Shown piece after piece: positions 4,639 through 43,628 of a stretch of DNA of 64,000 bases. Below the pieces are notes generated by a model, which saw only the letters and a list, made by a program, of their open reading frames with translations, ran no database searches and had not been told where the DNA came from. How positions within the stretch are numbered: the first letter of the stretch is position 1; each line of letters begins with the position of its first letter. A program made the translations under genes and the position numbers. Where the stretch lies: NCBI GenBank assembly GCA_048939995.1, contig JBHLOY010000002.1, positions 192,001 to 256,000 of the forward strand, in the 5' to 3' direction. Origin of the DNA: Promethearchaeota archaeon (GTDB taxonomy: Archaea > Asgardarchaeota > Lokiarchaeia > Sigyniarchaeales > SOKP01).

Positions 4639-4659
4639 TTAATTTAAATTTTTTTTTAT

Positions 4660-5076
4660 TTAATTTATTTTGAACTGATCTTTAATTTTATCAAGGTTAT
4701 AAGCGATATTCTCAATTGGTTCACCATCAATAACCATATCTATCTTCTCGATTAATTCTTTTGGAAATATTTCTACTTCTAAAATTTCATCCCTAAATTC
4801 TTTAAAATGATCTGTTACTACATAATCACTCGTGCTTCTTTTTGCATTAAACTCATTCATAACCAATTTTTCAAAAACATCAAGCACGTGGTTCATAATT
4901 TGACTTTCTAGTTGAATTACTTCTTGTTTAACATCATCAATCATATGGCCATATTTTTTATTGACTTCTGCCAAAGCCGCTTGTCGTTCTTCTTCAATTT
5001 TATCGATCTTCGGTTTAAGCTGGTGTTTTTTTCTTTCTAATTCTTCAAGTTTAGATTTGATATCTTTTACTGCCAT
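4660..5076 (-). CDS. coiled-coil hypothetical protein
   Basis: 138-aa ORF with N-terminal coiled coil. Confidence 0.7.
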   Translation of the reverse strand: MAVKDIKSKLEELERKKHQLKPKIDKIEEERQAALAEVNKKYGHMIDDVKQEVIQLESQIMNHVLDVFEKLVMNEFNAKRSTSDYVVTDHFKEFRDEILEVEIFPKELIEKIDMVIDGEPIENIAYNLDKIKDQFKIN

Positions 5077-5168
5077 AATTAATCTTCAAAATTTATTAAT
5101 TACCATTTTAAACTTAAAACTTACTTAAAAGTTTATTTGTAAAAATTAGATCAAAAATTTTTAATAAC

Positions 5169-6086
5169 TCATGATCTTTTTTTGTCTAAAAAATTTAAGA
5201 TTCCATTTATCGAATTTCTAATAAAAATCAATTCAAAGTCTTGACTCTTGTAGTCTAGTAACTTGATATTTGCAAAAAGCTTATCTATTTTTTCTAATTC
5301 TGAAATTATAATGTTATAAAACTTGGAATCATCCCGCAGGTGATTAAATTTCCCTATTACATCCACCCATATTGAAAGTTGATTTTTTGCTGTCTGTAAC
5401 ATTTTTTCAGCATTCTCTCTTTTTCCATAATGCGGATAACAGATTAAATAGTTCTTTAAATTTTCATTTAATAATTTTTGAATTGAAACCTTCCAGGAAT
5501 CATAATCAAAAGTCGGTGGTGTTGCTGGACGAAGATAGAACTTTCCTGCTAATTCTTTATGAGTTCCACCAATTTCACCTGCAAATAAAATGTTATTAAA
5601 TAAATATGACTGATGATGGGAAGCATGTCCTAAAGTTTCAATAATTTTGATGTTTTTCTCACCAACGTCAGGAAGGGTCACAAACCTTTCCTCTGGGATT
5701 GGAATTATATCTTCATAAATTTTAGCCATTTCACCTAATGTTTTAACACTAAGAGCCAATAATCTTTCAGGGTTTACTAGATGCTTGATTCCTCTCGGAT
5801 GACAAACAATTTTAGCAACAGGAAAATAGGATACTAATTTTCCCGTCCCCCCTGCATGATCCATATGTATATGGGTTAATATTATATACTTTAAGTCATT
5901 TTTTCCAATTTTTAAAGTATCTAGAGCTATTTTTAATGAATCTATTAATACAGAAGGACCTGGATCTACAAGAAAACTAAATGTGACATCTTTATAAATC
6001 CAAGTGCTAAGAAAGTTCTTGATCCCTAATTTTTCTAAATCTAAACGAACTTCATATAGATTATTAGTGATTTTAAAGATTTTCAT
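5169..6086 (-). CDS. metallo-beta-lactamase fold hydrolase
   Basis: VDPGP, THIHMDHAGG, GHASHH motifs. Confidence 0.9.
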   Translation of the reverse strand: MKIFKITNNLYEVRLDLEKLGIKNFLSTWIYKDVTFSFLVDPGPSVLIDSLKIALDTLKIGKNDLKYIILTHIHMDHAGGTGKLVSYFPVAKIVCHPRGIKHLVNPERLLALSVKTLGEMAKIYEDIIPIPEERFVTLPDVGEKNIKIIETLGHASHHQSYLFNNILFAGEIGGTHKELAGKFYLRPATPPTFDYDSWKVSIQKLLNENLKNYLICYPHYGKRENAEKMLQTAKNQLSIWVDVIGKFNHLRDDSKFYNIIISELEKIDKLFANIKLLDYKSQDFELIFIRNSINGILNFLDKKRS

Positions 6087-8595: not shown

Positions 8596-9498
8596 ATGCC
8601 ATATAACAAAGTACCTGAACCAGTTGAAGGATTAAAATTCATTGATACTCATTGTCATCTTCCATTTCCCCGGTCTAAAAAGAGTGATAGGTTGCCATCA
8701 GATGAGCAACAATATCTTGATTATTTCAAAATGGGAGGATTATATCTAATAACTAGTTCAATAGATAATATTACACTTAATTTAATTCTAGATTTTGTTA
8801 AGGATAAAATGAATATAGGATTTACATGCGGTTGGGCACCTCAAACAGTTACCTACACTTCAAAAGCAAAATATGAGAACGAATGGAATAAATGGACTGA
8901 ATTTGTAAAGAAAAATCAAGAAAGATATATTGCTATAGGAGAAATTGGCTTAGATTTCCACCATGCACGAGAATTAGCAAAAAGAGAGGAACAGGTCAGA
9001 GAATTAAGAAAAATTTTCGAATTAACTGAATCATTTGAAAAGCCTTACGTCCTTCACGTTAGAAATGCTGCGGAACATGAATATGATAGAGAACATCCTA
9101 AACATAGGTATAATAAAAAAGATGGGGCTACTAAAGAAATCTTAAATATTATTAGAGAATTTAAATTGAATCCAAAGAAGATTCTTTGGCATTGCTTTTC
9201 TGGTCCGGATGAGTATGGAACTTTATTAGCTAAACAAGGATATACATTATCAGTTCCAAGCTCTGCTTATAGTAGCAAAAGATGGAGATGTGTGACTCAA
9301 AATGCTCCTTTAGAAGCTTTAGTAACTGAAACAGACAGTTATTTTCAACACCCTTATCTTAGGGGTCCTGTAAATGTCCCGTCGAATGCAAGATATTCTA
9401 TAGCTGCCATTGCTCATTCTCATAATGTATCGCAAAATTTAGTCAGTGAAATAACTATTTCAAATGCAAAAAGTTTTTTCACTATAGAATTTGGTTAA
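8596..9498 (+). CDS. tatD: TatD family nuclease/hydrolase
   Basis: DTHCH, GEIGLD, LHVR, WHCFSG, ETD motifs. Confidence 0.9.
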   Translation: MPYNKVPEPVEGLKFIDTHCHLPFPRSKKSDRLPSDEQQYLDYFKMGGLYLITSSIDNITLNLILDFVKDKMNIGFTCGWAPQTVTYTSKAKYENEWNKWTEFVKKNQERYIAIGEIGLDFHHARELAKREEQVRELRKIFELTESFEKPYVLHVRNAAEHEYDREHPKHRYNKKDGATKEILNIIREFKLNPKKILWHCFSGPDEYGTLLAKQGYTLSVPSSAYSSKRWRCVTQNAPLEALVTETDSYFQHPYLRGPVNVPSNARYSIAAIAHSHNVSQNLVSEITISNAKSFFTIEFG

Positions 9499-9585
9499 AA
9501 ACGCCTATTTTAGATAATTTAAAAACACAGCACAAAATTTGTCTGGATTTAATTATATTTCAAGATAAAAACATAATTGAGAAAT

Positions 9586-10099
9586 ATGAAAATTTGATTA
9601 CATATTCTAGTCAATCAGGAAATACAGAAAAAATAGCTAAAGCAATAAAGGATGGATTGCATAATCAAGATATTGAACTTAAAACTATTAATGAGACAAA
9701 CCCCAATGGGTTTATAAACTACAATTTAGTGTTTCTTGGTTCTGGAGTTTATGCAAGCAGAGAATATACCTCAGTTTTTAACTTGATGAAAAGAATCTCA
9801 AGATTCCCCCCCATTTTATCTATTTTTGTACCAACGCTAGTCCAAGATTTTATCAAACTCCATTTGAAAAAGTAACAAAAATTCTGGAAAAAAATGATTG
9901 TAACATTATAGGAGAATTTGATTGTATAGGGGAAAATAAAGTTATGTCTTTAGAAACAAGAATGGAGATGATAAAAAGGTTACCAACAGAAGAACAAGAA
10001 AAAGCATTGAAAGATATAAAATTAGCAGAAGGTCGACCCAATCAAATTGATACTGAGAATGCGAAAAAGTTTGCGGTATCAATATTAGACAGTTTTTAA
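9586..10099 (+). pseudogene. flavodoxin family gene with two frameshifts
   Basis: ATG at 9586 (MKI, frameshift, ITYSSQSGNTEKIA...LGSGVY); second shift at the C7 run near 9805-9812 continues FIYFCTNAS...GEFDCIG...GRPNQ..TENAKKFA to TAA 10099. Both shifts are in homopolymers, so sequencing error is possible. Confidence 0.75.
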
Positions 10100-10213
10100 T
10101 GAAAGATTATGATTTCCGTTATTAAATGATTATTTTTAAAATTTTTCATAATAATTAGACTAAATTTTATTTAAATATTAAGTAACAATTGATTTCCATA
10201 ATATAACCATAAA

Positions 10214-11452
10214 ATGGTGAAATTATTGAGAAAGAATGTCAAAGTATTAATTATCGCTTTAGTAGCCATACTTGGTGGTGGAGCAATAGCTTTTATTGTC
10301 ACTGGTTTTGCAACTTCTGGTACAATTAGTAATTCATTTACGTTTCATTATCAGAACCCTCCATTAGCAATAGAGGATCTAAACTTAAATGTGGATCTTG
10401 GAAGTCTAGATATAAAATATAATACTACAAATACTCCTTATATTGTTGAAATTGATGTAGATTTAACAATTTCAGGACTCTATATGACTGGTAGGCAATA
10501 TACCGATTTCTTCATACCTGCTTCTGAATGGTGGCAAAATACAACCTCTCCTTTAAATTTTGATATGGAGATAATTCAAGAAATCTGGTTTAACCCCGCA
10601 TTTTGGTTTAAATTATACGATATTAATGTAACTGTGACCCTTAGAACTGACGTTGTTTATGATATTAGTGGTTTAACTGGAACTGGATCGATTGAAATGA
10701 CAGTTCCTGATGATATTTCATTAAAAAATATTACTCTTTCCTCTGGTACGGGTTCAGTGTTGTTAAGCACTTCCAATAATGTGGAAATTGACGGAGATGT
10801 TGATTTAAAGAGTGGTACGGGAACTATTGGATTAGTAAGTAGTAGTGCCAATATCACAGGTACATTAATAGCAGAATCAGGTACGGGCAGTACATCAATA
10901 GATTTAGCAAATTCTAATTTGGGGGGTGATATTTCCTTAGGAGCAGGTACAGGCAATGTGGTCTTTTTGGTGAGGAAAACGATTTGTTTAGGAGGTTTAA
11001 CAGGAAATACGGGCACTGGAAGTGTCACTGTAAATTTTACAAACTCTGTTCTTGGAAAGAATATTGTTCTTGGTACTGGAACCGGAAAGATTGATATTAA
11101 GACATATAATATGAGTTACCTTGATAATAGTGCATGGACAATGTCCACAGGTACTGGTGAAATACATCTTCAGATTACACAACATGCAAGTATGAATGCA
11201 AATGTAACAGGTACACTAACGACTGGAACTGGAAAAATAGCCATCATCTATAGAGATAATAGTCCACTTATTGGCGCAAGCTTTTTTGGAGATACCGGTA
11301 CAGGCAATTTTATTCGTACTAATACTTTTGGTTTTGAACCAGAGACGTATAACCCTTGGAATTCTGAGGATTATGATTCTGCCACTTCGAAGTACGACTT
11401 TTCTGCTTCAACAGGTACTGGTAATATTGAAATCGAAGGGTTGAGTCTATAA
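10214..11452 (+). CDS. membrane-anchored DUF4097/adhesin-like beta-repeat protein
   Basis: N-terminal TM; about 12 (S/T)GTG repeats at roughly 19-21 aa spacing; N-domain homologous to the proteins at 26945, 31685 and 42418. Confidence 0.8.
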   Translation: MVKLLRKNVKVLIIALVAILGGGAIAFIVTGFATSGTISNSFTFHYQNPPLAIEDLNLNVDLGSLDIKYNTTNTPYIVEIDVDLTISGLYMTGRQYTDFFIPASEWWQNTTSPLNFDMEIIQEIWFNPAFWFKLYDINVTVTLRTDVVYDISGLTGTGSIEMTVPDDISLKNITLSSGTGSVLLSTSNNVEIDGDVDLKSGTGTIGLVSSSANITGTLIAESGTGSTSIDLANSNLGGDISLGAGTGNVVFLVRKTICLGGLTGNTGTGSVTVNFTNSVLGKNIVLGTGTGKIDIKTYNMSYLDNSAWTMSTGTGEIHLQITQHASMNANVTGTLTTGTGKIAIIYRDNSPLIGASFFGDTGTGNFIRTNTFGFEPETYNPWNSEDYDSATSKYDFSASTGTGNIEIEGLSL

Positions 11453-11489
11453 AATCTTCTTTATTTTTTTTTTTATAAAAAAAAAATTT

Positions 11490-12206
11490 TTACCAGCAAT
11501 ACATATCATATGTTGGTTTATCGCTTAGTTCTCCATCTTTAATCCAAATATTTTTCCCTAGAGGATGTTCACCAACTACTTGGGCAATACGAGGGTCATG
11601 AGTAACGATTATAATTGTTTTACTTTCCTCTTCTGCTAATTTAATTAATAGTTGCATGATGGACTTACCCGTTTCTGAATCTAAATTACCAGTTGGTTCA
11701 TCAGCTAAAATCACTTTTGGGTCATTAATTAAGGCACGAGCTATTGCTACTCTTTGAGATTCACCCCCTGATAATTTTCCGACTTTACTATGCGTTCTAT
11801 CTCCTAAACCCACCAGATTTAGTAAGTCTTGAGCACGTTCGCGGTCTTTATCCTTAATCCCATATGGAATTAAAGGGATAAGTACATTATTAATAACATC
11901 TACATTAGGCAATAAGTAAAAGCTTTGAAAAACAAACCCAATAGTCTCTTTACGGTAACGTGATAACTTACGTTCTGGCAACCTCCCTATATCTATTTCA
12001 TCAACTAAAACCTCTCCTGACGTAGGTTTATCCATAGCACCTAAAATATTCAATAAAGTGCTTTTACCACTTCCACTAGGTCCCATAACAGTGAAGATTC
12101 TTCCTCTTTCTATTTCTAAGTCTACCTGATTAAGAGCCTTAATTTCAGTTCTTTCCTCTCCATAAATTTTACTAACATTATTCAATTTAATAAGTGATAT
12201 ACTCAT
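11490..12206 (-). CDS. ABC transporter ATP-binding protein, LolD/MacB type
   Basis: GPSGSGKST, LSGGESQRVAIARAL, ADEPTGNLD, VTHD. Confidence 0.95.
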   Translation of the reverse strand: MSISLIKLNNVSKIYGEERTEIKALNQVDLEIERGRIFTVMGPSGSGKSTLLNILGAMDKPTSGEVLVDEIDIGRLPERKLSRYRKETIGFVFQSFYLLPNVDVINNVLIPLIPYGIKDKDRERAQDLLNLVGLGDRTHSKVGKLSGGESQRVAIARALINDPKVILADEPTGNLDSETGKSIMQLLIKLAEEESKTIIIVTHDPRIAQVVGEHPLGKNIWIKDGELSDKPTYDMYCW

Positions 12207-27949: not shown

Positions 27950-28055
27950 TTCTTCACATTAATAGGGCAAAAAACTTAAATAAATAATCAATTAATGATA
28001 TAGGGAAGAATATTATTTAAATCAAATCTCTAGGTATTAATTAAGTCTAACAACA

Positions 28056-28080
28056 TTCGAATTTTGGGTGAAGTCTCGAA
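28056..28080 (+). promoter_or_regulatory. 25-bp palindromic operator, copy A
   Basis: ttcgaattttgggtgaagtctcgaa, followed by gtcaaatct. Confidence 0.7.
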
Positions 28081-28153
28081 GTCAAATCTTTGATTTTGCA
28101 TTAAAGGCTAGCTTTTCTATAAGAGATAACTAGCTGGTTTTGGGTGCAAAAAA

Positions 28154-28193
28154 TTCGGACTTTGTGTGAAGTTTCGAAGCTAATTCTAAAAAT
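28154..28193 (+). promoter_or_regulatory. operator copy B plus TCTAAAAAT box
   Basis: ttcggactttgtgtgaagtttcgaa-gctaat-tctaaaaat, upstream of 28296. Confidence 0.8.
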
Positions 28194-28295
28194 TAATTGG
28201 TAGGATAAATTCTAATTGGCACTAATTTAACTACTGAAATTGTTGCCTTAACCAATTTAAATAAAAAAACAATCACAGAAAAAAGGTTTAAAAAA

Positions 28296-29855: not shown

Positions 29856-31637
29856 ATGTCTTTAGACAATAAAGGTTCAAAGAAAAAAATTCCTAAAAAG
29901 AAAGTTAGAGTAATAAAGAAAAAACCAGTTGCAGTTTTTGGAATAGTTGCTGCTGTGGCCATAGCAGGGATTATTGGTGGAATAACTATCTTTTTATATT
30001 CACCAGAGGAAAAAATTATATATATCTCATTCACAGATTTAGCTGCAGCTCAATCTGGTATTGATCCTCTTATAACCTGGGTTCCAGCTGATTATGAGAT
30101 ACTTAATCAAGTTGCTGAAGGTTTATTTACCCATGATTCAGCTAATCAACAATCCCAAATAATTCATAACCTTGCTATAAATCATTGGAGGAATGATAAT
30201 GCTACAGAATATACCTTTGAACTGAGACAAGGGGTTCAGTTCCATGATGGAACACTATTTAATGCAGCAGTGGTTCAATGGAATATTGATAGAATATACA
30301 CTTTAATTGAAAATGGTAAAATGCACTTTACTTCAAAACAGTTCTGGTTATTTTCCGATGGGACATGGATTATAAACCGTACTGAAATTATTAATAATTA
30401 TAATATAAAGTTTGTATTAAACAAACCTTATATCCCTCTTACTGCATTATTAGCTTCTGTTAATTCATTTATGGTTTCACCTACCTCAACACCTCAAAAC
30501 GATTTTATTCCACTAAACGGAACATTAATCGGAACTGGTCCTTATTTGTATGACGTTTGGAATAAGGATTATAATTTAGTACTCTCTTCCAATCCAAATT
30601 ACTGGGGCGGTAAACCTCAAATTGATAAGTTGATTTTCAAAGATTATGTAACTCCAGAAGATAAATTTGAAGCATTGATTTCTGGAGAACTTTCAATGTT
30701 AAGTGGTTACAATGAAATACACTCTCATGGTCATTATTGGGATTCCCTTGGAATTTATGATAATGATGTCCTGAATACTTTTATGAATGATCCTGATATT
30801 ATAGTAGAAGAAGGTCCTTCAGCGACCTATTTTGAATACTTACTGATGAACAATGAATTAATTAATGCAACTATGAGAAAAGCAATCTCTTACGCTTGTA
30901 ATTATTCAGCTTATATAGATAAGTGGTTAAGCGGTCATGGAATGAGACTTAGATCTCCTATTCCGGAAGGAATTTTATACTCAAACTCAACCGGTATTGA
31001 TGTTCCCTATTATAATATTTCTATAGCGCGACAAACTTTAAAAGAAGTGAATTGGAACGGATTAGCTAGTGCTTTACCTGCTGATGATAACATTTCTGCA
31101 GGTAATGAATGGGAACAATTGATAATTGACGGAACACCTTTAGCTACTTATAATTTTACATACATTAGTGGTATGCTAAATGGTATAGTTTTTTTAAATA
31201 TAACAAAAGAAAATCTTAGACAAATTGGAGTAAAAGTAGAAGCTGTTCCACTTTCTCCTGGAGAATATATACAAATTTTTTGGGAAACACCTCCTTATCA
31301 CTTAAATATGATTGAACTTTCACATATGGGGTATATTACAAGATTTAATGATCCTTGTAGTATTATCAACATTTTATGTTCAAATAAAGCTTTAGATTTA
31401 AATTATTGTCAAATAAATGATACTTTAGTTCAGCAATGGATGGAAGAGGCTCTAGGCGAAACCAATGAGGCTATAAGAGAACAGTTATATTATCAAATTC
31501 AAAAGCGTTTAATTGAAGAGGTTTTCCCGATGTGTTATCTGATTGCAAGAAATTGTTTTAAAATTTATAGATCCAATTTAAAAGACTTTGAGTTTAACCA
31601 TTTTAATCCTGTTTACAAAGATATCTACTTTATTTGA
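29856..31637 (+). CDS. family-5 solute-binding protein; copy 2
   Basis: LRQGVQFHDGT, IGTGPY, NPNYWG, MRKAISYA. Confidence 0.9.
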   Translation: MSLDNKGSKKKIPKKKVRVIKKKPVAVFGIVAAVAIAGIIGGITIFLYSPEEKIIYISFTDLAAAQSGIDPLITWVPADYEILNQVAEGLFTHDSANQQSQIIHNLAINHWRNDNATEYTFELRQGVQFHDGTLFNAAVVQWNIDRIYTLIENGKMHFTSKQFWLFSDGTWIINRTEIINNYNIKFVLNKPYIPLTALLASVNSFMVSPTSTPQNDFIPLNGTLIGTGPYLYDVWNKDYNLVLSSNPNYWGGKPQIDKLIFKDYVTPEDKFEALISGELSMLSGYNEIHSHGHYWDSLGIYDNDVLNTFMNDPDIIVEEGPSATYFEYLLMNNELINATMRKAISYACNYSAYIDKWLSGHGMRLRSPIPEGILYSNSTGIDVPYYNISIARQTLKEVNWNGLASALPADDNISAGNEWEQLIIDGTPLATYNFTYISGMLNGIVFLNITKENLRQIGVKVEAVPLSPGEYIQIFWETPPYHLNMIELSHMGYITRFNDPCSIINILCSNKALDLNYCQINDTLVQQWMEEALGETNEAIREQLYYQIQKRLIEEVFPMCYLIARNCFKIYRSNLKDFEFNHFNPVYKDIYFI

Positions 31638-31684: not shown

Positions 31685-32686
31685 TTAATAATTATGGAGT
31701 TCTAGTTCTTCATAAATACCAATTGGAAAATTAAACATCCAATGATAATTATATAATGAGGGATAATCATCAGAAGTTATATGATAAACATCTGTCCCGT
31801 TTACTGCGATCACATTGTATGCAAAACCTATAAGCTCAGCAATTTTTTGATTAATAGCATAATCATCTGGGTGTACATGTAATATAAAGTATGCTCCAAC
31901 CTCAGCGGTATTGTCTCTATAAGTCAATAGATAATTACCCGTAATTATTGTGATATTCCCAGTTACATTAGCATTAGTAGCTTTATTCTGAGAGATTTCA
32001 ATATATACATCACCATCATTAGTATAAAGGGACCAATTGCAATTTTGCGTGTATTCCACATCATAACTTCTTACTTTTATATCCCCTGTGTTTTGAATAA
32101 TTCCAGAAATATTTCCTTCTAGAATACAATAAAAGAAGTCATATTGAATATTACCTTTCATCAAATTGGTTATGATATTTCCAACTGAGACCCCAAGAGG
32201 AATAGTTGCTTTAGAGCTTCCTCTAATATCAACCATAGTATTGATATCATAAAGTACATCAGCTTTAAGTGCTACGATTATATCAACATTTTTTATCAAA
32301 GATAAAATATCACCTTGCTTTATGCCTTTTTTTAACTCCATTGTAAAATTTACAATAGTGCTTGTATTTTGCCAAAGGATATCGAAATAATCTATATGCG
32401 ATTTTCCAACTAAACCTCGACCAATCATTTCAATATTTATATCAATTTTTGCACAATAACTTATTGGATCTGTTATATATTCAATTTCAACTTCTCCTAT
32501 ATCGATATCAATATTCAGTTCATTCAAAAATGAAGGTGAGCTAGAATTGTAATAGAATTGAAGAGATTCATCTATTCTGCCATAAGATGAGAGACTTATT
32601 GAAAAAATAACAATGGGCGTCGAAAAAATGATAATTAAACTGAATATAAGCATTATAATGATAATTCTAATATCCTTCCTTACCAT
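31685..32686 (-). CDS. membrane-anchored DUF4097-like surface protein
   Basis: ELNIDIDIGEVEIEY; close paralog of 26945. Confidence 0.75.
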   Translation of the reverse strand: MVRKDIRIIIIMLIFSLIIIFSTPIVIFSISLSSYGRIDESLQFYYNSSSPSFLNELNIDIDIGEVEIEYITDPISYCAKIDINIEMIGRGLVGKSHIDYFDILWQNTSTIVNFTMELKKGIKQGDILSLIKNVDIIVALKADVLYDINTMVDIRGSSKATIPLGVSVGNIITNLMKGNIQYDFFYCILEGNISGIIQNTGDIKVRSYDVEYTQNCNWSLYTNDGDVYIEISQNKATNANVTGNITIITGNYLLTYRDNTAEVGAYFILHVHPDDYAINQKIAELIGFAYNVIAVNGTDVYHITSDDYPSLYNYHWMFNFPIGIYEELELHNY

Positions 32687-32802
32687 TGTTAAATCTTTCC
32701 AAGAGTAGATAACAAAATTACAAATAATGATATAGGTGAGAATACTATTTAAACCAATCCGTAAAATGCCTTGCTAAAGCGGGTTTTAGTATACTTATAA
32801 TA

Positions 32803-32843
32803 TTCGAACTTTGAGCGAAGTTTAGAAGCTATTTCTAAAAATA
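32803..32843 (+). promoter_or_regulatory. operator copy C plus TCTAAAAATA box
   Basis: ttcgaactttgagcgaagtttagaa-gctatt-tctaaaaata. Confidence 0.8.
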
Positions 32844-33047: not shown

Positions 33048-34049
33048 TTGATTAATTTTGATCTTATTGAACGTTTTTTTTCGTCTATTGCAATAGTAGT
33101 AATAATTTTTTGTTTTATATTTTATTTTTCTCAAGGGCGTAAGAAAGAGGTTCTACATGAAAAAATTTTGATGTATAGTTTTGCAAGTTTTTGGCTCAGT
33201 ATTTCTTTAGCAAGAATATTTTATTATTTTTCTGACATTTTTTTAGAGGGAACTTACTCAGGTGATTTAAGCACACTTATTGAATCATATGATCTCTTAA
33301 ATTATATTATTCTTTACTTTTATCTATATTCTCATATATATATTTTAATAAGTATTATAGCATTAAGTGTTATGTTTATATGGTTTTCAATAAAGTCAAA
33401 AAAAGAATTTCAGCTAGTTTCCTCAGTAGTAGCCATTGGATTTACAATATTTTTAATAGGATGGGTTTTTGAAACGACGGCATTAAAGCAATTAAACCTT
33501 ATACCTCCAGCATTACCATCTATTTTTATAATAGTAGGAACCATAATTGCAACGATACCTCTAATTGTGGATATTGAGTTTTTTTCAAGCAAATTAATTA
33601 ATTGGTTAGTTTTAATTTCAATTGTTTTGATTTTACTTTTTTTTAGTTTAACCATTTTTACGAATCTCCCATTAGTACTTTTAAGTCAGATTATAATCTT
33701 AATTTCAACCTCTGTTTTAATTATGGTGATCATTTTTGTGGCATTTTACATAATCAAGAGAATTAAAGTATCAGAAGTTCAGGAAATAGTTCCAAAGGAG
33801 GAACTTAAAGATTTTATAAAGACTTTTATGAAGCCTGCTACCATTACAATCGAGGAAATTCAATTATATAAAGAGAAAGGATTATGTTTGGTGTGTAAGA
33901 GTAAAGTCACACGATTAAATTATGTCTGTCCCAAATGCTATGCATTATATTGTTTAAAATGCTCAAGAGCATTAACTAATTTAGAAAATAGTTGTTGGGT
34001 CTGTGAAACCCCCTTTGATGAATCTAAACCTATGAAAAAGTCTAAATAG
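33048..34049 (+). CDS. multi-pass membrane protein with C-terminal C8 RING-like zinc finger (candidate E3)
   Basis: About 7 hydrophobic segments; CLVC-x10-CPKC-x4-CLKC-x10-CWVC-ETPF. Confidence 0.72.
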   Translation: MINFDLIERFFSSIAIVVIIFCFIFYFSQGRKKEVLHEKILMYSFASFWLSISLARIFYYFSDIFLEGTYSGDLSTLIESYDLLNYIILYFYLYSHIYILISIIALSVMFIWFSIKSKKEFQLVSSVVAIGFTIFLIGWVFETTALKQLNLIPPALPSIFIIVGTIIATIPLIVDIEFFSSKLINWLVLISIVLILLFFSLTIFTNLPLVLLSQIIILISTSVLIMVIIFVAFYIIKRIKVSEVQEIVPKEELKDFIKTFMKPATITIEEIQLYKEKGLCLVCKSKVTRLNYVCPKCYALYCLKCSRALTNLENSCWVCETPFDESKPMKKSK

Positions 34050-34074: not shown

Positions 34075-34284
34075 ATGATTGAATTATTAATATTGCTGCT
34101 TCTAATATTTTTAGCAATCCCTTATATTATATTGTCTTTTATAACATTCTGGGTATATAAAGATGCAAAAAAAAGAGATATGAATGTATTTGCTTGGATT
34201 TTGGTAATTTGGTTAATACCATTCTTTATTGGGTTGGTCATTTATTTAAAGATTAGAATACAATATTCTGTCACGAGATTATAA
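34075..34284 (+). CDS. small PLDc_N-like 2-TM membrane protein
   Basis: WVYKDAKKR....W......P..G...YL pattern. Confidence 0.75.
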   Translation: MIELLILLLLIFLAIPYIILSFITFWVYKDAKKRDMNVFAWILVIWLIPFFIGLVIYLKIRIQYSVTRL

Positions 34285-34549: not shown

Positions 34550-35566
34550 ATGTTAAAGCCTCCTCAAATCTTATTTACCGGAGAAAATGGTGTTGGTAAA
34601 ACAACTATCTTGAATTTATTTCCAGAAGATATTATTTTAGAATTAGACGATAACTTTAATGAAATTTTTCAAAAGCAAGTTAATATTACTGGATTCAAAG
34701 GTATAGAACATTGTATTTTAAGAGAAATTGATTTAAGAGAATTAGTAGACAATTTTTTTTCTTTTCAAAAACTACTACAGGCTCTTGATATCATTCTCAT
34801 TGTAACTGATTCAACTGAACGAAATATTAAATATACTTATAATTTATTTTCTGAATTGAAATATAAATTACCTAAAATTGATTTTTATATAATTGCTAAT
34901 TTTCAAGACAGAAAGTCAATTTCAATGCCCATAGAAAAAATTGAATCTATATTAAAAGAGAAGGTTTTTGGATATTCGGCCATCCAAGAGGATTCAAAAG
35001 ATTCTATGACTGAAATTATTAAAGAGATTTTAGAAATTTCAATTATTAAAAAACAAGGAAAAAAGCTTTCATTTGATAAAATTGATTACAATACAATTTG
35101 GTCAGACATCGAAGAAGCAAGATTGTTGGAAAAGAAAGGAGACCATTATGCGGCATCAAAAAAATTCTCAATTGCTGGATCTAAATTTAAAATACTAAAT
35201 TCAAATGAGGAAAAAGAAGAATTTAAAGCGTTATACAATTTATGTAAGGCTTGGGAGTGTATAGAATTAGCTGAAGAATATGAGGATGTTTCGAAGTTTG
35301 CTGAAGCTGTGAAATTTTTTGATCAAGCAATTGAATCTCTATATGATGAGAAATTAAAATTTTTAGTATCCGCTAATTTAGCACATTGTGAAGCTTTAAA
35401 ATTAGGAATGGAGTCAGATACATCAGATCAACTACATATTAAAGAAAAATTATATTTAGAAATAATCGATTTAATTAACAAAGCAGTTAATTTATATAAA
35501 AGAGGAGGTTTTGAAAAAGAAGCGGAATTTGCTTTAACTACCTTGAATAAATTAAAGAGCCTTTAA
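34550..35566 (+). CDS. degenerate Ras/Arf-like small GTPase fused to TPR-like helical domain
   Basis: GENGVGKTT P-loop, VTDST, ANFQD (G4-like), YSA (G5-like); no DxxG; C-terminal helical repeats. Confidence 0.75.
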   Translation: MLKPPQILFTGENGVGKTTILNLFPEDIILELDDNFNEIFQKQVNITGFKGIEHCILREIDLRELVDNFFSFQKLLQALDIILIVTDSTERNIKYTYNLFSELKYKLPKIDFYIIANFQDRKSISMPIEKIESILKEKVFGYSAIQEDSKDSMTEIIKEILEISIIKKQGKKLSFDKIDYNTIWSDIEEARLLEKKGDHYAASKKFSIAGSKFKILNSNEEKEEFKALYNLCKAWECIELAEEYEDVSKFAEAVKFFDQAIESLYDEKLKFLVSANLAHCEALKLGMESDTSDQLHIKEKLYLEIIDLINKAVNLYKRGGFEKEAEFALTTLNKLKSL

Positions 35567-35619: not shown

Positions 35620-36114
35620 TTGACGTTATTCGAAAAAGATTTTCTATTTCCAGTATACATCGATAAAAATACTTTAAATCATATTGATGAATTATGCAAA
35701 AATTCTGATAGAGAACTTTTTGGCTATTTAATTGGTTTAATTTTAAAATGGAAAAAGAATAAATATATTATTATAAAAGAACAGATTTATATTAAAAATA
35801 CAGTTAGAAGTAATAAATTTAACACATCCCAAATTGAAGGAACTGCTGGAAAATACGAACAGGAATTTCAAAAGTTGAAACATAGTATGAGGAACGAGAA
35901 TTTACGAGTTGTAGGATGGTGGCATTCCCATATCAATTTAGGGTGCTTCTTATCCTTAACTGATATTCATACACAAGAATATTTTTTTCCTGAACCTTAC
36001 CAAGTTGCATTAGTAGTTGATCCTATTCGAGAGGAATACAAATTTTTTACATTAGATGCAGGCTCAAAAAAGAAATACAAAACGCTAAGTTATGCTATTA
36101 TATCTTCAACTTAA
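35620..36114 (+). CDS. JAB1/MPN/Mov34 (Rpn11-like) metalloisopeptidase
   Basis: ELFGYLIG, VVGWWHSH...FLSLTD, VALVVDP JAMM motif. Confidence 0.92.
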   Translation: MTLFEKDFLFPVYIDKNTLNHIDELCKNSDRELFGYLIGLILKWKKNKYIIIKEQIYIKNTVRSNKFNTSQIEGTAGKYEQEFQKLKHSMRNENLRVVGWWHSHINLGCFLSLTDIHTQEYFFPEPYQVALVVDPIREEYKFFTLDAGSKKKYKTLSYAIISST

Positions 36115-36131
36115 CAATTTAGTTTATATCT

Positions 36132-37013
36132 ATGCGTAAGAAAGAAAATCAAGGAATTAAAGTGATTGGAACGGATTCCATAGATTCAGATAGATTCGAT
36201 CGCCAAAAGAGAATTATTGGTTGGGATCAAACTATTATTTCTAATGCGACAATTATGGTAATTGGTGCTGGAGCTACTGGAAATGAAGTTATAAAAAATT
36301 TAGCTTTAGTCGGAGTTGGAAAGATATTTTTAATTGATTATGATTTCATTGAAACTTCAAATTTAAGTCGTTGTGTGTTGTTTAACCCTAAAGTAGCAAA
36401 GGATAAAGAATACAAAGCAGATGTTATTAAAGATGTGTGTAGAGACTTAAATCCTGATGTCGAAGTTGTTTCAATTAAAAAAGACTTAAATTCAATAGAT
36501 AAAACTCTTTATAGCAAGTGTGATGTAATATGTTCTTGCTTAGATAATCTTGAAGCACGGATAGAAGCTAACAATTATGCATATTATAATCGAATTGCTT
36601 TTGTTGATTCTGGGATCGACGAATTTTTTGGTTCAGTTCAAGCAGTATATTCAGAAGTTGAAAATTCAGCTTGTTTGCAATGCGGTATATCAGAAAAGGA
36701 TTTGGATTTAATGTGGAAAAAATTTTCTTGCACTGGAGAGGAATTAAGGTCTGAAGAAGGTGAAACCACAAATAAAATAGCAACAATCATTACGACTACT
36801 TCAATAATAAGCGGTATTCAATCTCAGCAGGTTTTAAAATTTTTACTTGGAATTAAATATTATAAGGAAGATAAAAAATGGAATCCTTATATTGGAGCAC
36901 CATTGGTTGGTAAGCAATTAATTTATAATGGCCTAACAAACAGTTTCAACATTATTGATAAAATAAAAGATCCAAATTGTTGGACTTGCTCATACAAAAA
37001 ATCTAAGATTTAA
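36132..37013 (+). CDS. ubiquitin-like activating enzyme E1 (ThiF/UBA family)
   Basis: RFDRQ, GAGATG, DYDFIETSNLSR, CLDN..AR, CLQC, FSC (catalytic Cys), CWTC. Confidence 0.93.
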   Translation: MRKKENQGIKVIGTDSIDSDRFDRQKRIIGWDQTIISNATIMVIGAGATGNEVIKNLALVGVGKIFLIDYDFIETSNLSRCVLFNPKVAKDKEYKADVIKDVCRDLNPDVEVVSIKKDLNSIDKTLYSKCDVICSCLDNLEARIEANNYAYYNRIAFVDSGIDEFFGSVQAVYSEVENSACLQCGISEKDLDLMWKKFSCTGEELRSEEGETTNKIATIITTTSIISGIQSQQVLKFLLGIKYYKEDKKWNPYIGAPLVGKQLIYNGLTNSFNIIDKIKDPNCWTCSYKKSKI

Positions 37014-37030: not shown

Positions 37031-37558
37031 ATGCCAGAATTACCCTTTGAGATATGGAAAGAAAGAGTAAATAATGAGATAAAGATCCTAAGAAATATTA
37101 GCCTCATTGAAAATAAATCTATAGCATGGCATGATAATAGTGTAGAATTATGGATTAATTTAAGTGCCTTTGGATTCGTTAAAAGAGAAATTGAAGGAGT
37201 TATCAATGTAAAACCTCAGATGAATCACCGAATTCTCATTAAAATAAATAGATCCTTTCCATATCCAGGAGGGATTGATTTTGCTTGGTATTCAGAAATA
37301 TTTCACCCAAATATCCATCCCATTGAATTAAAAGGATTGAAAACTATAGGCACAGGTTATATTTGTTTAAATATTTTAAGACAATGGACAAAATTATCAG
37401 ATTTGGAAACTACAGTTAAATCCCTTGAAAAATTAGTAGAGAATCCCAATCCAGAGGATCCTCTTCAATATGATATTTGTATTGAAGCTGCTGAATTCTT
37501 TAAAAGAAATTCAATTCAAGAACTTAAAAAGATTTATAAAAAAGAAAATTATATTTAA
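37031..37558 (+). CDS. ubiquitin-conjugating enzyme E2
   Basis: FPY..., IFHPNI, GYICLNIL..W, L..L...PNP.DPL. Confidence 0.92.
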   Translation: MPELPFEIWKERVNNEIKILRNISLIENKSIAWHDNSVELWINLSAFGFVKREIEGVINVKPQMNHRILIKINRSFPYPGGIDFAWYSEIFHPNIHPIELKGLKTIGTGYICLNILRQWTKLSDLETTVKSLEKLVENPNPEDPLQYDICIEAAEFFKRNSIQELKKIYKKENYI

Positions 37559-37824
37559 GAATTAAAAAACAAACCTCCAATAACTTTTGTCCATAACATC
37601 AAAATATCATATTCTTTTAACCCAAATTTATGAATTGCCTCCCTAATTGATATTGCATTCGGTAATTCCTTTTCCTTATACACTAAAGCATAAGAACGTT
37701 GTTCTGAACTTATAAAACCCATATGTTTAACAACAATTTCTATAATACGCTCTATTATATGATGTTCCTTTACATCTAACTTTATTCTTTTGCCTGTTCT
37801 GGTATCTTCTATTGATAATTTCAT
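37555..37824 (-). CDS. ubiquitin-like protein with GG and 5-residue C-terminal propeptide
   Basis: beta-grasp pattern, GLKEYDIL.L, ends TKVIGG-LFFNS; convergent with E2. Confidence 0.85.
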   Translation of the reverse strand: MKLSIEDTRTGKRIKLDVKEHHIIERIIEIVVKHMGFISSEQRSYALVYKEKELPNAISIREAIHKFGLKEYDILMLWTKVIGGLFFNS

Positions 37825-37875: not shown

Positions 37876-37915
37876 ATTTTTAGATTTGAGTTCGAAACTT
37901 TTCACAAAGTTCGAA
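37876..37915 (-). promoter_or_regulatory. operator copy D plus TCTAAAAAT box upstream of the Ubl gene
   Basis: Minus strand reads ttcgaactttgtgaaaagtttcgaa-ctcaaa-tctaaaaat, ending 52 nt before the Ubl ATG. Confidence 0.82.
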
Positions 37916-37922
37916 TTAGAGA

Positions 37923-39218
37923 TTATTCTTGTTCTTTCAACTTTTTATTAATTTCATCCAATATTTTATATTTTGGAAAATCTTTTAAAATTGAGGTTAA
38001 AATGGTTTTTTCTCTTTTTATTCTGTTATAATCCTCTAATTTTAGGTTAATTATATTTTGGAAAGCTAAACCCTTAAACTTGTCTACTAAATCATCTGAA
38101 ATTGTCTCTTTTTGATATTTCCCGAATAAGAAATTGATGTAATCTGGTACAAATTTCTTTAGAGGTGATTTTATATTTCTATCAAAGAGTTTATCAGAAA
38201 TATCATTTAAAATATTGTCTAATAAATCTACGGTTTGTGAATTTCTTTCTTCTTTAGAAATATCAGGTTGTAATCTTTTGAGATAACTAAACTTTAGAAT
38301 GTTCTCATCTATAATTAAATGCAACATTTTATCAATTTTGTCATCCTCTCGAAAATAATATACCACTTCATCATTAAGTCTTAAATTGAAAAATTTTGTA
38401 TCATATAAATCCTCTTCAGTAATCTTTTGCGTACAAAAAGTAAGTGTAGCTAGTTTAATATTATATTTAAGAGAAAAATTTTCTTGTGAAATATATTCTG
38501 GATATCGACTTGGATGATTTATAGAAAGAAATAATAATATTTTATAAAAATCTTCTTTTGATGGGAGTATATTCTCAATGAAGCTATAATTCAAATGATT
38601 GATTAAATCTAGAAATAAAATTTCAATTTGGCTATCTTCAACATTCTGCTCTTTAAGAAACCTTCTGACGTTTTCTTTGATACTTTCTATTTTATCTATT
38701 TCTTCTTCTAAAACTGATTGATAATCTAATTGGTATCTTTTCAGCATTTTATTATATCGTTCCTCACCTATTCTAGTGATTCTGTATTCCATGTTTTCAC
38801 TATCAACAAAACCTTTTTTCATTAAAAGATTTAAATATTTTGATAGAGAATTATGATTGAGAGAAAGAGGTTTTTCAATAAAATCTGACCACTTTAAATA
38901 GTCGTTATTAAATAACATCCACAAGATGATATGAGCATAATTTCTCTTGTTTAAAATGATCTCTGGAGGATATCTTAATTTTCTCTCAAATGAATCTTTA
39001 AATTTTAAATCTATATATCTTTTTTTACCTTCAGCAGTAGCTAGATAAACTCCTTTACTCTTTTTCTCAACATATCCGTTTGAAATTAATAATTTCATGT
39101 ATTTAGACAATGTAGCTAAGCTGATTTCTAACGGCTCATCTAAAAAGACAGACCAATTACATTCCTCATTATTATTAAGCATCCAGAGGATTATATATTC
39201 AAAATCTTTCTTCTCCAT
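37923..39218 (-). CDS. tandem winged-helix DNA-binding protein (candidate regulator)
   Basis: Two repeats of IILWML.NN...WS.F...PL.....LSKY...L...G.V......Y..T..G. Confidence 0.8.
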   Translation of the reverse strand: MEKKDFEYIILWMLNNNEECNWSVFLDEPLEISLATLSKYMKLLISNGYVEKKSKGVYLATAEGKKRYIDLKFKDSFERKLRYPPEIILNKRNYAHIILWMLFNNDYLKWSDFIEKPLSLNHNSLSKYLNLLMKKGFVDSENMEYRITRIGEERYNKMLKRYQLDYQSVLEEEIDKIESIKENVRRFLKEQNVEDSQIEILFLDLINHLNYSFIENILPSKEDFYKILLFLSINHPSRYPEYISQENFSLKYNIKLATLTFCTQKITEEDLYDTKFFNLRLNDEVVYYFREDDKIDKMLHLIIDENILKFSYLKRLQPDISKEERNSQTVDLLDNILNDISDKLFDRNIKSPLKKFVPDYINFLFGKYQKETISDDLVDKFKGLAFQNIINLKLEDYNRIKREKTILTSILKDFPKYKILDEINKKLKEQE

Positions 39219-39452: not shown

Positions 39453-39481
39453 CTGTTTCTTGGAATAATAAGTGGAAGATA

Positions 39482-39522
39482 TTCTAAGTTCGCTAAAGGT
39501 TTCGAACTTAAATCTAAAAATA
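39482..39522 (+). promoter_or_regulatory. operator copy E plus TCTAAAAATA box
   Basis: ttctaagttcgctaaaggtttcgaa-cttaaa-tctaaaaata. Confidence 0.72.
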
Positions 39523-40643: not shown

Positions 40644-42356
40644 ATGATTAAAATGATAGAAAAAGCTTCTTCTAAAAAAAGATTTCCTAATATCAAAGAA
40701 TTCAAGAAAATAATCATAGTTGGAGGGTCAATAATAAGCTTAGCGATAGTTGGGATTATAAGTGGAATTATTATTATGGGAGATATCCCGCAAGGAGGTA
40801 TTCTTAAAGTAGGTATAACTAAACCTATTGGAGAAATTGACCCTCTTATGTATAGCTTTTCTTCAGAAGAAATAGTAATTAATCATGTTACCGAGACGTT
40901 ATTTGATAATATTTATATAGGTGGTAAATCTCAAACTCTTCCTCATCTAGCATTAGATGGAAATTGGAGTTCGGACTACCTAAATTTCACATGCACACTT
41001 AGAAAGAATGTCATGTTCCATGACGGAACGCCATTTAATGCTGCAGCCGTTAAATGGAACTTCGATAGAATTCCTCAAATTATCGATCCATCACTTCCAG
41101 ATTGGTATTGGTGGGCTTACCTATTTCTTTTACCAGATGGGCGCTGGATTGTAAATAAAACTCTAGTCTTAGATTCCCATATTGTAAAATTTGTTTTAAA
41201 TGATGTTTTTGTACCTTTTCGAGAATTATTAACTCATAGTACTACAAGTATTTTATCACCATCATCAACCCCTGCGGATAAACCCCTAAATATACACATT
41301 GATAATTTAGTTGGAACCGGTCCTTTTATATATGATGGTTATGAACCTAATGTCAATATGTCATTATCTCCTAATCAGAATTACTGGGGAGCAAAACCTA
41401 AAATTGATGAGGTAATTTTAAAGTTTTATTCTCCAACTAATCGTACTAATCGTATTAATATTTTATGGAATGCGCTTTTAGCAGGAGAAATTCATATAGT
41501 AGACCGAGATTTTATTAAGTTTTTAATAATGTACTATCCAGACCGATCTATCGAACTCCTTAAAGGAGTTGCAGGAATTACAGTTCAACAAAAGCCTACT
41601 ATAAGCAATTATTATGTTTTTTTTTATCCTAAACTTGTTAATAGTACAATGAGAAAGGCAATATCTTATGCAATTAACTATTCTAATATACTTGAAATAG
41701 TTCCTAACTCTATAACAGCCAGATCCCCAATTCCAGAAGGTATCTCTTACTCTAACATTACTGGTATTGACATTCCTTATTATAACATTTCAAAGGCGAG
41801 ACAGATGTTAATTGACGAAGGTTGGCCTGGAACAGCGGGTTTAACGGCAAATGACAATATTACAGCAGGAAACGAATGGGAACAATTAGTAACTAATGGA
41901 TCCCCTCTTGCAATATATAATTTATCTTATTATACAGAGAATCCATACAATGAATTACCACCAATTCCTTTTCCAGAAAATCTTAAACAAATTGGAGTCA
42001 ATGTATCATGTCGATCAATTTGGAGTGGTGCTCCGTCTCAACTTGAAACATTAATGTGGATGTATGACTATAACGATCCACACACTGGTATTATGATGGA
42101 TTATCATTCAAAATGGACTTTATGGACCGACTTTAATGTTAGTGTATTAGATGAATTGATAGAAGAAGGAATTAAGGAGATAAACCCTGTTTTAAGAGAA
42201 GCGATATACTATAATATTCAAAAACTTATAATCGAGGAAATTTGTCCTGTTATATTTACTCTCTCTCCACGAAATTTAGATATATATGCATCAAATTTAA
42301 TGGACTGGCAAATTTATCCATTCAAAATAGTATTTAAAACAGTTCACTTCGTCTAA
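40644..42356 (+). CDS. family-5 solute-binding protein; copy 3
   Basis: LRKNVMFHDGTPFNA, VGTGPF, NYWG, MRKAISYA. Confidence 0.9.
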   Translation: MIKMIEKASSKKRFPNIKEFKKIIIVGGSIISLAIVGIISGIIIMGDIPQGGILKVGITKPIGEIDPLMYSFSSEEIVINHVTETLFDNIYIGGKSQTLPHLALDGNWSSDYLNFTCTLRKNVMFHDGTPFNAAAVKWNFDRIPQIIDPSLPDWYWWAYLFLLPDGRWIVNKTLVLDSHIVKFVLNDVFVPFRELLTHSTTSILSPSSTPADKPLNIHIDNLVGTGPFIYDGYEPNVNMSLSPNQNYWGAKPKIDEVILKFYSPTNRTNRINILWNALLAGEIHIVDRDFIKFLIMYYPDRSIELLKGVAGITVQQKPTISNYYVFFYPKLVNSTMRKAISYAINYSNILEIVPNSITARSPIPEGISYSNITGIDIPYYNISKARQMLIDEGWPGTAGLTANDNITAGNEWEQLVTNGSPLAIYNLSYYTENPYNELPPIPFPENLKQIGVNVSCRSIWSGAPSQLETLMWMYDYNDPHTGIMMDYHSKWTLWTDFNVSVLDELIEEGIKEINPVLREAIYYNIQKLIIEEICPVIFTLSPRNLDIYASNLMDWQIYPFKIVFKTVHFV

Positions 42357-43467: not shown

Positions 43468-43587
43468 TTTTAAATCTATTAATTACAAACAATTAATTCT
43501 ACAATCAATTAGATAAGGTAATTATCTATTTAAATTAATCCCTCAACACTTTTTTTTTTTGACCCTAAAACAGTACAAATTTTAAAA

Positions 43588-43628
43588 TTCGAACTTTGCG
43601 CGAAGTTTCAAAGTCAAATCTAAAAATA
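43588..43628 (+). promoter_or_regulatory. operator copy F plus TCTAAAAATA box
   Basis: ttcgaactttgcgcgaagtttcaaa-gtcaaa-tctaaaaata. Confidence 0.82.

Follow-up and report, generated by a model that had tools for sequence, protein, structure and literature searches.

A multi-pass membrane protein with a predicted C4C4 RING-like finger is linked to an accessory ubiquitin-like system in one family of Lokiarchaeia

The stretch of DNA analysed here, referred to as the window, comprises 64,000 nucleotides from a Promethearchaeota archaeon of the class Lokiarchaeia (assembly GCA_048939995.1, contig JBHLOY010000002.1, positions 192,001 to 256,000 of the forward strand). It encodes a polytopic membrane protein that ends in an eight-cysteine finger, close to genes for a ubiquitin-like modifier (Ubl) and for E1-like, E2-like and JAB-type enzymes, and the linkage of the finger with these genes is conserved. 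We refer to the protein as the transmembrane (TM)-RING protein. The initial annotation of the gene reported about seven TM helices, a C8 finger spacing and a terminal ETPF, and the open reading frame and the AF2 model (finger at residues 280-319) agree with that description. The gene and its parts are as follows.

33048-34049, plus strand: TM-RING gene, polytopic membrane protein of 333 residues with a C-terminal C4C4 finger of predicted RING fold (open reading frame and translation)
33063-33770, plus strand: seven-helix transmembrane domain, residues 6-241 (AF2 helices, positive-inside count)
33795-33884, plus strand: lead-in to the finger, KEELKDF..TKPxxITEEEVxxxKEK, with two predicted helices (finger-model residues 2-10 and 19-28), conserved in alignments A1 and A2
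33885-34004, plus strand: C4C4 zinc finger of predicted RING fold, residues 280-319, with ligands C280, C283, C294, C297, C302, C305, C316 and C319

The finger reads CLVC-x10-CPKC-x4-CLKC-x10-CWVC and is followed by ETPF. Its spacing, C-x2-C-x10-C-x2-C-x4-C-x2-C-x10-C-x2-C, fits the RING ligand pattern C-x2-C-x(9-39)-C-x(1-3)-[CH]-x(2-4)-[CH]-x2-C-x(4-48)-C-x2-C. In a finger-only alignment of 45 sequences from 40 loci, which were 32-82% identical to the finger of the window, seven of the ligands were Cys in all sequences, and the eighth was Cys in 44 and His, a zinc ligand too, in one. Such invariance in diverged sequences indicates that the eight-Cys pattern does not result from chance. Besides the ligands, W317, E313, N314, Y301 and K284 were near-invariant. 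The position of V282, directly after C1, was hydrophobic in all 45 fingers (41 Val, 4 Ile), that of L309, four residues after C6, was occupied by Leu (40), Met (2), Ile (2) or Val (1), and that of W317, directly after C7, by Trp in every case. Judging from in-register alignments of the finger profile with PDB sequences, these three would be the positions of the classical E2-contact residues of RING domains. Moreover, the finger was 45-65% identical across paralogues, compared with less than 30% for their TM parts, as would be expected if all copies bound one common partner.

The profile of the finger, compared with sequences of proteins in the PDB, matched RNF4 (1.1e-5), TFIIH p44 (1z60, 1.2e-3) and TRIM37 (1.4e-3), and then RING2/BMI1, MDM2 and PCGF; in the RNF4, TRIM37 and MDM2 alignments, all eight ligands were in register. 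Prok-RING_1 (PF14446) matched 16 of the 45 family members weakly, with a best E-value of 6.6e-5, below its gathering threshold of 29.1 bits. DZR (PF12773) and DZR_2 (PF18912) scored 11.8 and 17.5 bits on the window protein, short of the required 27.3, and matched 43 and 38 of the 45 members, also below threshold (best E 7e-5). Weak matches to the ANCHR B-box were found as well. By Pfam sequence models alone, the class of the finger is ambiguous, whereas the PDB profile search points more clearly to RINGs.

The AF2 model of the finger had a mean pLDDT of 84.8, rising to 92-95 in the core, and contained two strands (42-44 and 51-53) and a helix (54-63), that is, the RING-like order of beta-hairpin and helix in the segments between ligand pairs 2-3 and 3-4. 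Foldseek found RING domains in the PDB at every informative rank (TRIM37, BMI1/RING1B, HRD1, Rad18, UHRF1, IDOL, Cbl), with probabilities of up to 0.99 and E-values of about 0.03, which are usual for a 50-residue domain. VIA-align, which is independent of Foldseek and was run against 48,161 chains, gave RING or U-box domains in about 49 of its 50 best matches (Z 3.8-5.2, 47-60 residues), among them Nse1, the cellulose synthase zinc finger, Prp19, APIP6, GATOR2, RNF213, p44, HRD1, TRIM37, RNF4, TRAF6, CNOT4 and Pex; the sole exception in this top 50 was a zinc-ribbon ribosomal protein at rank 40. Taken together, the model, which was built without zinc, and the two fold searches favour a RING-like cross-brace over two zinc ribbons, in line with the RING-like finger of the initial annotation; the separate ribbons that it had named as a refuting outcome do not appear in the prediction. 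It had also noted a resemblance to NOT4 and p44, and these were indeed among the matches (1z60 as above, 8ebs with Z 4.8, CNOT4 1ur6 with Z 4.0). A specific kinship of the finger to CNOT4 or p44 was rejected, as their matches were no better than those of ordinary RINGs.

The TM-RING open reading frame starts with TTG, at a position that matches the start of homologues beginning M-(I)-F-D-P-L-E-R-F-F. In the full-length AF2 model (38 homologues), the TM helices span residues 6-32, 36-65, 83-116, 119-141, 156-173, 181-204 and 209-241, followed by a linker of low pLDDT (240-261), two short helices and the finger. The numbers of Lys and Arg residues in the predicted loops are 4, 3, 1 and more than 3 inside, and 0, 0, 1 and 0 outside. 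By the positive-inside rule, these counts place the N-terminus outside and the finger in the cytoplasm, where it had been placed before, and hence on the side of the E1, E2 and Ubl. A word-indexed search found 124 homologues of the protein, and an exhaustive phmmer search (E up to 1e-3) found 815 clusters at 50% identity; all homologues with a name were archaeal or Promethearchaeota. No Pfam or NCBIfam family matched the TM-RING protein above threshold, and a search for a name for its TM domain in Pfam, NCBIfam and the ESM Atlas returned nothing or 'hypothetical protein' only.

Downstream of the TM-RING gene lie the following genes.

34075-34284, plus strand: two-helix membrane protein of 69 residues, 25 nucleotides past the TM-RING gene and directly downstream of it in nearly all orthologous loci
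34550-35566, plus strand: P-loop GTPase-like domain followed by TPR-like helical repeats (weak Pfam/NCBIfam matches to AAA_24, small_GTP and TPR_IF140-IFT172)
35620-36114, plus strand: JAB/MPN metalloprotease for Ubl processing or deconjugation (PF01398, 43 bits against 22.5)
36132-37013, plus strand: E1-like activating enzyme of the ThiF family, 293 residues (PF00899, 153.7 bits, passing the gathering score)
37031-37558, plus strand: E2-like conjugating enzyme with HPN motif, Cys112 and loop 4 FPYPGG (PF00179, 40.5 bits against 27)
37555-37824, minus strand: ubiquitin-like modifier of 89 residues, a single copy in the genome (translation; weak TUG-UBL1 match)
37923-39218, minus strand: tandem winged-helix regulator (HTH_45, HTH_34 and MarR matches; synteny conserved)

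The 69-residue protein is probably a partner subunit of the TM-RING protein, and the GTPase-TPR gene accompanies the Ubl block in other genomes. An alignment of E2 orthologues showed that F76-P77-Y78-P79, H92-P93-N94, C112 and W119 are invariant, and that K10 and R12 of helix 1 are also kept. The Ubl ends in IGG followed by a five-residue tail (..IGG+LFFNS). No other RING gene was found in the window cluster. The same genome carries a second, canonical ubiquitin operon on contig 23 (G000:C23; L079:5323-9570, minus strand), which encodes ubiquitin (PF00240), a 410-residue E1, an E2 (UQ_con, 89 bits), a JAB protein and an unassigned protein of 376 residues. Thus, the window cluster is a second, accessory system, made up of a divergent E2 (40 bits), a short E1 (293 residues), a Ubl with hardly any match in Pfam and a JAB protein.

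The conservation of this arrangement was followed in 77 loci from species-representative genomes, searched with the twelve neighbouring proteins of the window. A full-length TM-RING orthologue (45-90% identity) was present in 28 of them, and in 23 of these 28 the Ubl and/or JAB-E1-E2 genes lay within 10 kb of it; an E2, E1 or JAB gene was present in 15 of the 23. Of the other five loci, two are cut off by a contig edge and three lack the linkage. The block of Ubl, E2, E1, JAB and GTPase genes has the orientation of the window in some loci, is inverted in nine and lies upstream in one, indicating that the linkage outlasted rearrangement. In addition, the same finger was found on a second TM scaffold of about 350 residues, with other helices and no detectable similarity to the first, which adjoins Ubl-E2-E1-JAB in 6 of 12 loci. 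The association thus goes with the finger and not with one particular membrane domain. It had been cautioned initially that the adjacency of the TM-RING gene to JAB-E1-E2 might be fortuitous. This caution can be withdrawn, as chance is ruled out by the synteny across inversions, the second linked scaffold and the phyletic co-occurrence described below. The operator that the TM-RING and Ubl genes share, also described below, is a fourth line of evidence against a fortuitous neighbourhood.

Genes of the second scaffold, recognizable by ..GLREEP.. before the finger, also occur in tandem arrays of two to four (L077:2821-3876, 4258-5208, 9323-10390 and 10655-11695; also in L060 and L066), and in L077 these arrays flank the Ubl-E2-E1-JAB block. 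A further occurrence is a protein of 1818 residues (L028:82-5538), presumably a surface protein, which has one TM helix near its C-terminus and ends in a divergent finger with His as ligand 2 (C-x2-H).

Among 151 sampled genomes of the phylum, 18 of 25 in one GTDB family had the finger, compared with 0 of 126 in 26 other families. The expectation that TM proteins with such fingers would be common in Lokiarchaeia thus held inside that family only and failed elsewhere, and the genome of the window itself has a single intact copy. When 41 genomes of the family were scored for the finger and for the E2 type of the window, 16 had both, 20 had neither, four had the finger only and one the E2 only; all four finger-only genomes are 72-89% complete, and the E2-only genome is an assembly of 700 contigs. 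Presence and absence of the two agreed inside genera g1, g6, g54 and g56, pointing to several joint gains or losses. A finger gene lay within about 4 kb of the E2 gene in 9 of 17 E2-bearing genomes, and in most of the others the E2 gene was near a contig end. Each genome with the E2 carried between 1 and 17 finger genes, scattered across many contigs; where the E2 was absent, no finger gene passed this threshold. This copy pattern is what a functional dependence of the finger on the E2/Ubl system predicts.

A search of the window's genome for the paralogue family yielded only the one intact finger gene and a decayed fragment (G000:C11:489954-490190; L078:9877-10251; frame ..ITEEEASISKEKKIFLVCKSK..), in which C1 is replaced by F and there is neither a TM part nor a usable start codon, and which is probably the pseudogene remnant of a paralogue. 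The homologous metagenome-assembled genomes carry NCBI labels such as Thor-, Hod-, Hermod- or Odinarchaeota (L002, L004, L014, L017, L025 and others), which were not used to define the range. As every finger-bearing genome of the GTDB-based sample belongs to one family, these deposited phylum labels look unreliable.

We propose, with moderate confidence, that the TM-RING protein is a membrane-embedded C4C4 RING-type E3, or an E3-like E2-docking subunit, of the accessory Ubl system of this one family of Lokiarchaeia. Its seven TM helices, probably together with the 69-residue two-helix protein, would anchor it in the cytoplasmic membrane, and the flexible linker (240-261) and the two short helices would hold the cross-brace finger in the cytoplasm. 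The E1 (36132) would activate the JAB-matured Ubl (37555-37824) and pass it to the E2 (37031), and the finger would bind the E2~Ubl conjugate via V282, L309 and W317. The charged E2 would in this way be drawn to the membrane, so that Lys residues in neighbouring membrane proteins, or in the TM-RING protein itself, could be modified. We infer zinc binding, E2 binding and ligase activity of the protein, as well as its substrates. In Caldiarchaeum, mutating the P-Y pair of the E2 abolished the RING-dependent reaction, and an Ile and a Trp of the RING were also needed (PMC5654768). The accessory E2 orthologues keep this loop-4 P-Y pair, which we count in favour of an E3 function, together with the finding that the TM-RING protein is the sole intact finger-family member in the genome and has no other RING gene beside it in the cluster. 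The predicted fold, the synteny, the second scaffold, the co-occurrence with the E2, the stronger conservation of the finger than of the TM parts, the hydrophobic contact positions and the operator shared with the Ubl gene speak for this reading as well.

Several observations weigh against a ligase. The linchpin Arg or Lys after C8, which is conserved in active RINGs and locks E2~Ub in a closed state, is lacking, the residue there being Glu (14), Asp (12), Asn (12), Gly (2), Gln (2) or Leu (1) in the 45 fingers, and the usual Pro after C7 is replaced by Trp. None of the Pfam RING models reached its gathering score on the window protein (best zf-C3HC4_3, 19.2 bits against 27), and the best E-values among family members were weak (zf-C3HC4_3 3.3e-6, zf-RING_2 3.2e-4), with C1_2 and DZR similar. 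At 4-5, the Z values of the fold searches are modest, which is normal for a domain of about 50 residues, and they were obtained with a zinc-free predicted model as the query. Furthermore, RING folds also serve in non-ligase roles in TFIIH p44, the cellulose synthase zinc finger and GATOR2/SEA, and these were among the matches of the finger. Eight orthologous loci have the Ubl, GTPase-TPR and regulator genes only, with no E1, E2 or JAB gene within 10 kb. Most of some 30 distant paralogues, which are about 30% identical, have roughly 390 residues and contain two extra helices, are not linked to the cluster. Finally, the 41 genomes scored for co-occurrence represent one family, and so are related and not independent samples. 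In Caldiarchaeum, the linchpin Arg of the RING protein srfp was needed, as judged by R69A (PMC5654768).

Several of these points would fit a RING fold without ligase activity, which we regard as rather unlikely. The finger would then serve in docking, in oligomerisation or in sensing the Ubl or E2, and the membrane protein would be a target, an anchor or a regulator, which, for example, recruits the GTPase-TPR protein or JAB to the membrane, or is itself the modified substrate. The missing linchpin is consistent with that, as are the eight loci that keep Ubl, GTPase-TPR and regulator without an E1 or E2 nearby, and the presence of C4C4 non-ligase folds among the best matches: p44, the RINGs of GATOR2/SEA and the cellulose synthase zinc finger (1weo, Z 5.1), which itself belongs to a polytopic membrane protein. 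The conserved K284 and K327 and a Lys-rich tail could also be modification sites. However, hydrophobic residues occupy the three classical E2-contact positions almost without variation, the finger family, dispersed paralogues included, is found only where this E2 type occurs, and the cluster offers no other E3 candidate. Moreover, C4C4 RINGs can be active ligases, as is CNOT4, which was among the fold matches.

The initial annotation called the protein a candidate receptor-type E3 that could couple an extracellular signal to Ubl transfer. According to this proposal, the 7TM bundle would sense an extracellular ligand, perhaps via solute-binding proteins, and switch the ligase on. The features that bear on it lie upstream of the TM-RING gene and before the Ubl gene.

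29856-31637, plus strand: membrane-anchored family-5 solute-binding protein (SBP_bac_5, 164 bits), convergent with the gene at 31685-32686
31685-32686, minus strand: single-TM protein of 333 residues, convergent with the solute-binding gene
32802-32843, plus strand: dyad operator TTCGAACTTTGAGCGAAGTTTAGAA + TCTAAAAAT, about 205 nucleotides upstream of the TM-RING start and pointing at the gene (repeat family D2)
37876-37917, minus strand: the same dyad with its TATA-like unit, before the Ubl gene (inverted-repeat pairs I1-I4, genome-wide scan)

In most orthologous loci, the TM-RING gene is preceded by the solute-binding gene and its single-TM partner, so that the orphan solute-binding genes noted earlier are part of a conserved neighbourhood, and no ABC transporter genes lie beside this pair in the window. 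The operator unit is 41 nucleotides long (41-49) and consists of the dyad TTCGAACTTTG-N-G-N-GAAGTTTCGAA, also written TTCGAAC..GTTTCGAA, followed by TCTAAAAAT. With up to three mismatches, the dyad occurs five times in the 3.75-Mb genome, always in this 16-kb region, and the reversed-pattern control gave 0 copies. The units are at 28048-28194, 32795-32843, 37876-37917 (minus strand), 39474-39522 and 43580-43628; besides the TM-RING and Ubl genes, they precede several secreted-protein genes. They look like a locus-specific regulon, and we infer that the tandem winged-helix protein (37923-39218) is a candidate binder of the dyad.

A ligand-gated receptor nonetheless seems improbable, although a transporter-less solute-binding pair in most orthologous loci and one operator type before both the secreted-protein genes and the TM-RING gene are in keeping with it. 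In structure, the TM bundle comes closest to G protein-coupled receptors, of the adhesion type and others, with CD97 and ADGRL3 the best in VIA-align (Z 10.2, 153-155 residues aligned). However, the likeness covers model residues 1-175 only, that is, five helices, and a Z of at most 10.2 is below VIA-align's own bar for helical bundles, so that it amounts to a generic 7TM similarity; Foldseek returned nothing informative for the bundle, with TM-scores to rhodopsins of about 0.26. An ectodomain is absent, and the loops on the outside have only 14-17 residues. Ligand gating would, in any case, refine the proposed E3 function and does not exclude it.

That the eight Cys form a double zinc ribbon, and thus a generic tail for metal binding unrelated to Ubl transfer, is very unlikely: two symmetric C-x2-C-x10-C-x2-C halves allow that reading on paper, and DZR and DZR_2 match most members below threshold, but neither the AF2 model, with its RING-like hairpin and helix, nor either of the fold searches, which gave RING and U-box domains, supports two independent ribbons, the ligands are in register with RNF4, TRIM37, MDM2 and the genome's own small RING protein, and a generic ribbon would leave the Ubl linkage and co-occurrence unexplained.

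Archaeal ubiquitin operons are already known to encode soluble RING E3s, and such E3s have been reconstituted, namely srfp of Caldiarchaeum subterraneum (PMC5654768) and that of the ESCRT-ubiquitin operon of Helarchaeia (bioRxiv 10.1101/2023.07.25.550441). Like the TM-RING protein, archaeal srfp is a RING-fold protein encoded beside genes for ubiquitin or a Ubl, E1-like and E2-like enzymes and JAB/Rpn11, and its experimentally important I30 and W58 correspond to the hydrophobic residues of the TM-RING finger after C1 and in the central helix. In contrast, the known proteins are small and soluble, of the RING-H2 type (C3H2C3) and have a linchpin Arg (R69), whereas the TM-RING protein is C4C4, lacks a linchpin, has Trp after C7 and spans the membrane with seven helices. 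It would serve a second, divergent Ubl system and not the canonical operon, which is also present in its genome.

The genome of the window also encodes canonical small RING proteins elsewhere. One of them, a soluble zinc-ribbon and RING protein of 94 residues (G000:C6:94914-95198; L080:6914-7198), passes Prok-RING_1 (30.9 bits) and zf-RING_2. Its pattern, C-x2-C-x12-C-x2-C-x4-H-x2-C-x10-C-x2-C, has nearly the spacing of the TM-RING finger, and hhalign put all eight ligands in register, with a probability of only 22%. The TM-RING finger differs from Prok-RING_1 and the 94-residue protein in having Cys and not His as ligand 5 and in its sub-threshold scores, and the protein is polytopic and not small and soluble. 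The 94-residue protein may represent the ancestral type of the C4C4 finger.

Among eukaryotic proteins, CNOT4 (1ur6) and p44/Ssl1 (1z60, 8ebs) share with the TM-RING finger an all-Cys cross-brace and the x4 between ligands 4 and 5, a spacing with which the p44 profile alignment agrees; their contexts, a deadenylase complex and a transcription factor, are unrelated. The design of the TM-RING protein, a multi-pass membrane domain with a cytoplasmic RING, is that of eukaryotic Hrd1/SYVN1, Pex2/10/12, MARCH/Doa10 and plant ATL proteins. The RING domains of HRD1 and Pex were among the fold matches of the finger, and these eukaryotic families, like the finger family, have grown to many paralogues that keep the finger but differ in their membrane parts. 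However, no homology of the TM domains was detected: HRD1 (8kes_A) matched the TM bundle with Z 7.5 over 125 residues, within the helical-bundle noise of VIA-align, and Pex (7t92) appeared as a weak Foldseek row within the range common for helical bundles. In the locus, no Cdc48 or retrotranslocation partner is apparent either. We regard the likeness as an analogy of design and not as membership.

A full-text search of one literature library found soluble archaeal RING E3s only, and no archaeal Ubl locus with a RING protein that passes the membrane several times, which does not prove that such a protein is unpublished. The finger family is new and unannotated, and it occurs in a new architecture and in a distinct accessory system. 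The archaeal ubiquitin systems examined to date rely on small soluble RING ligases. To our knowledge, membrane-embedded RING ligases have so far been described mainly in eukaryotes, and ubiquitylation at membranes by such ligases, as in endoplasmic-reticulum-associated degradation, endocytic down-regulation and peroxisomal import, is seen as an elaboration of eukaryotes. If the proposed function is correct, a membrane-embedded RING with its own E1, E2, Ubl and JAB protein would place this design before eukaryogenesis, and the five- or six-gene system would be compact enough for reconstituting membrane-protein ubiquitylation. The patchy joint gain and loss of finger and E2, together with the up to 17 finger copies per genome, is a natural experiment on E3 diversification around one E2. 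A broader hypothesis, to which we give slightly less than an even chance, is that the C4C4 finger has ligase activity and was grafted in Lokiarchaeia on at least two unrelated multi-pass scaffolds and on giant surface proteins, all of them relying on one accessory E2/Ubl pair. The eukaryote-like logic of one E2 with many membrane substrate-receptors would then have arisen in Asgard archaea, maybe with some tuning by solute-binding and secreted proteins under shared regulation.

Two minor observations concern the finger family and the neighbouring solute-binding proteins. Open reading frames of 70-85 residues in related genomes, including some without the accessory E2, match the core of the finger profile weakly (E 1e-8 to 1e-10; G103:C31:21037-21192, G145:C10:239024-239176 and G127:C135:6199-6348), and may belong to a separate small zinc-finger family. 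In the membrane-anchored family-5 solute-binding proteins, the cytoplasmic N-terminal tail that precedes the one TM helix is unusually rich in Lys (29856-29960 and 40644-40740; for example, KGSKKKIPKKKVRVIKKKP). These Lys residues could be either modification sites for a membrane ligase or a mere outcome of the AT-rich genome and the positive-inside rule.

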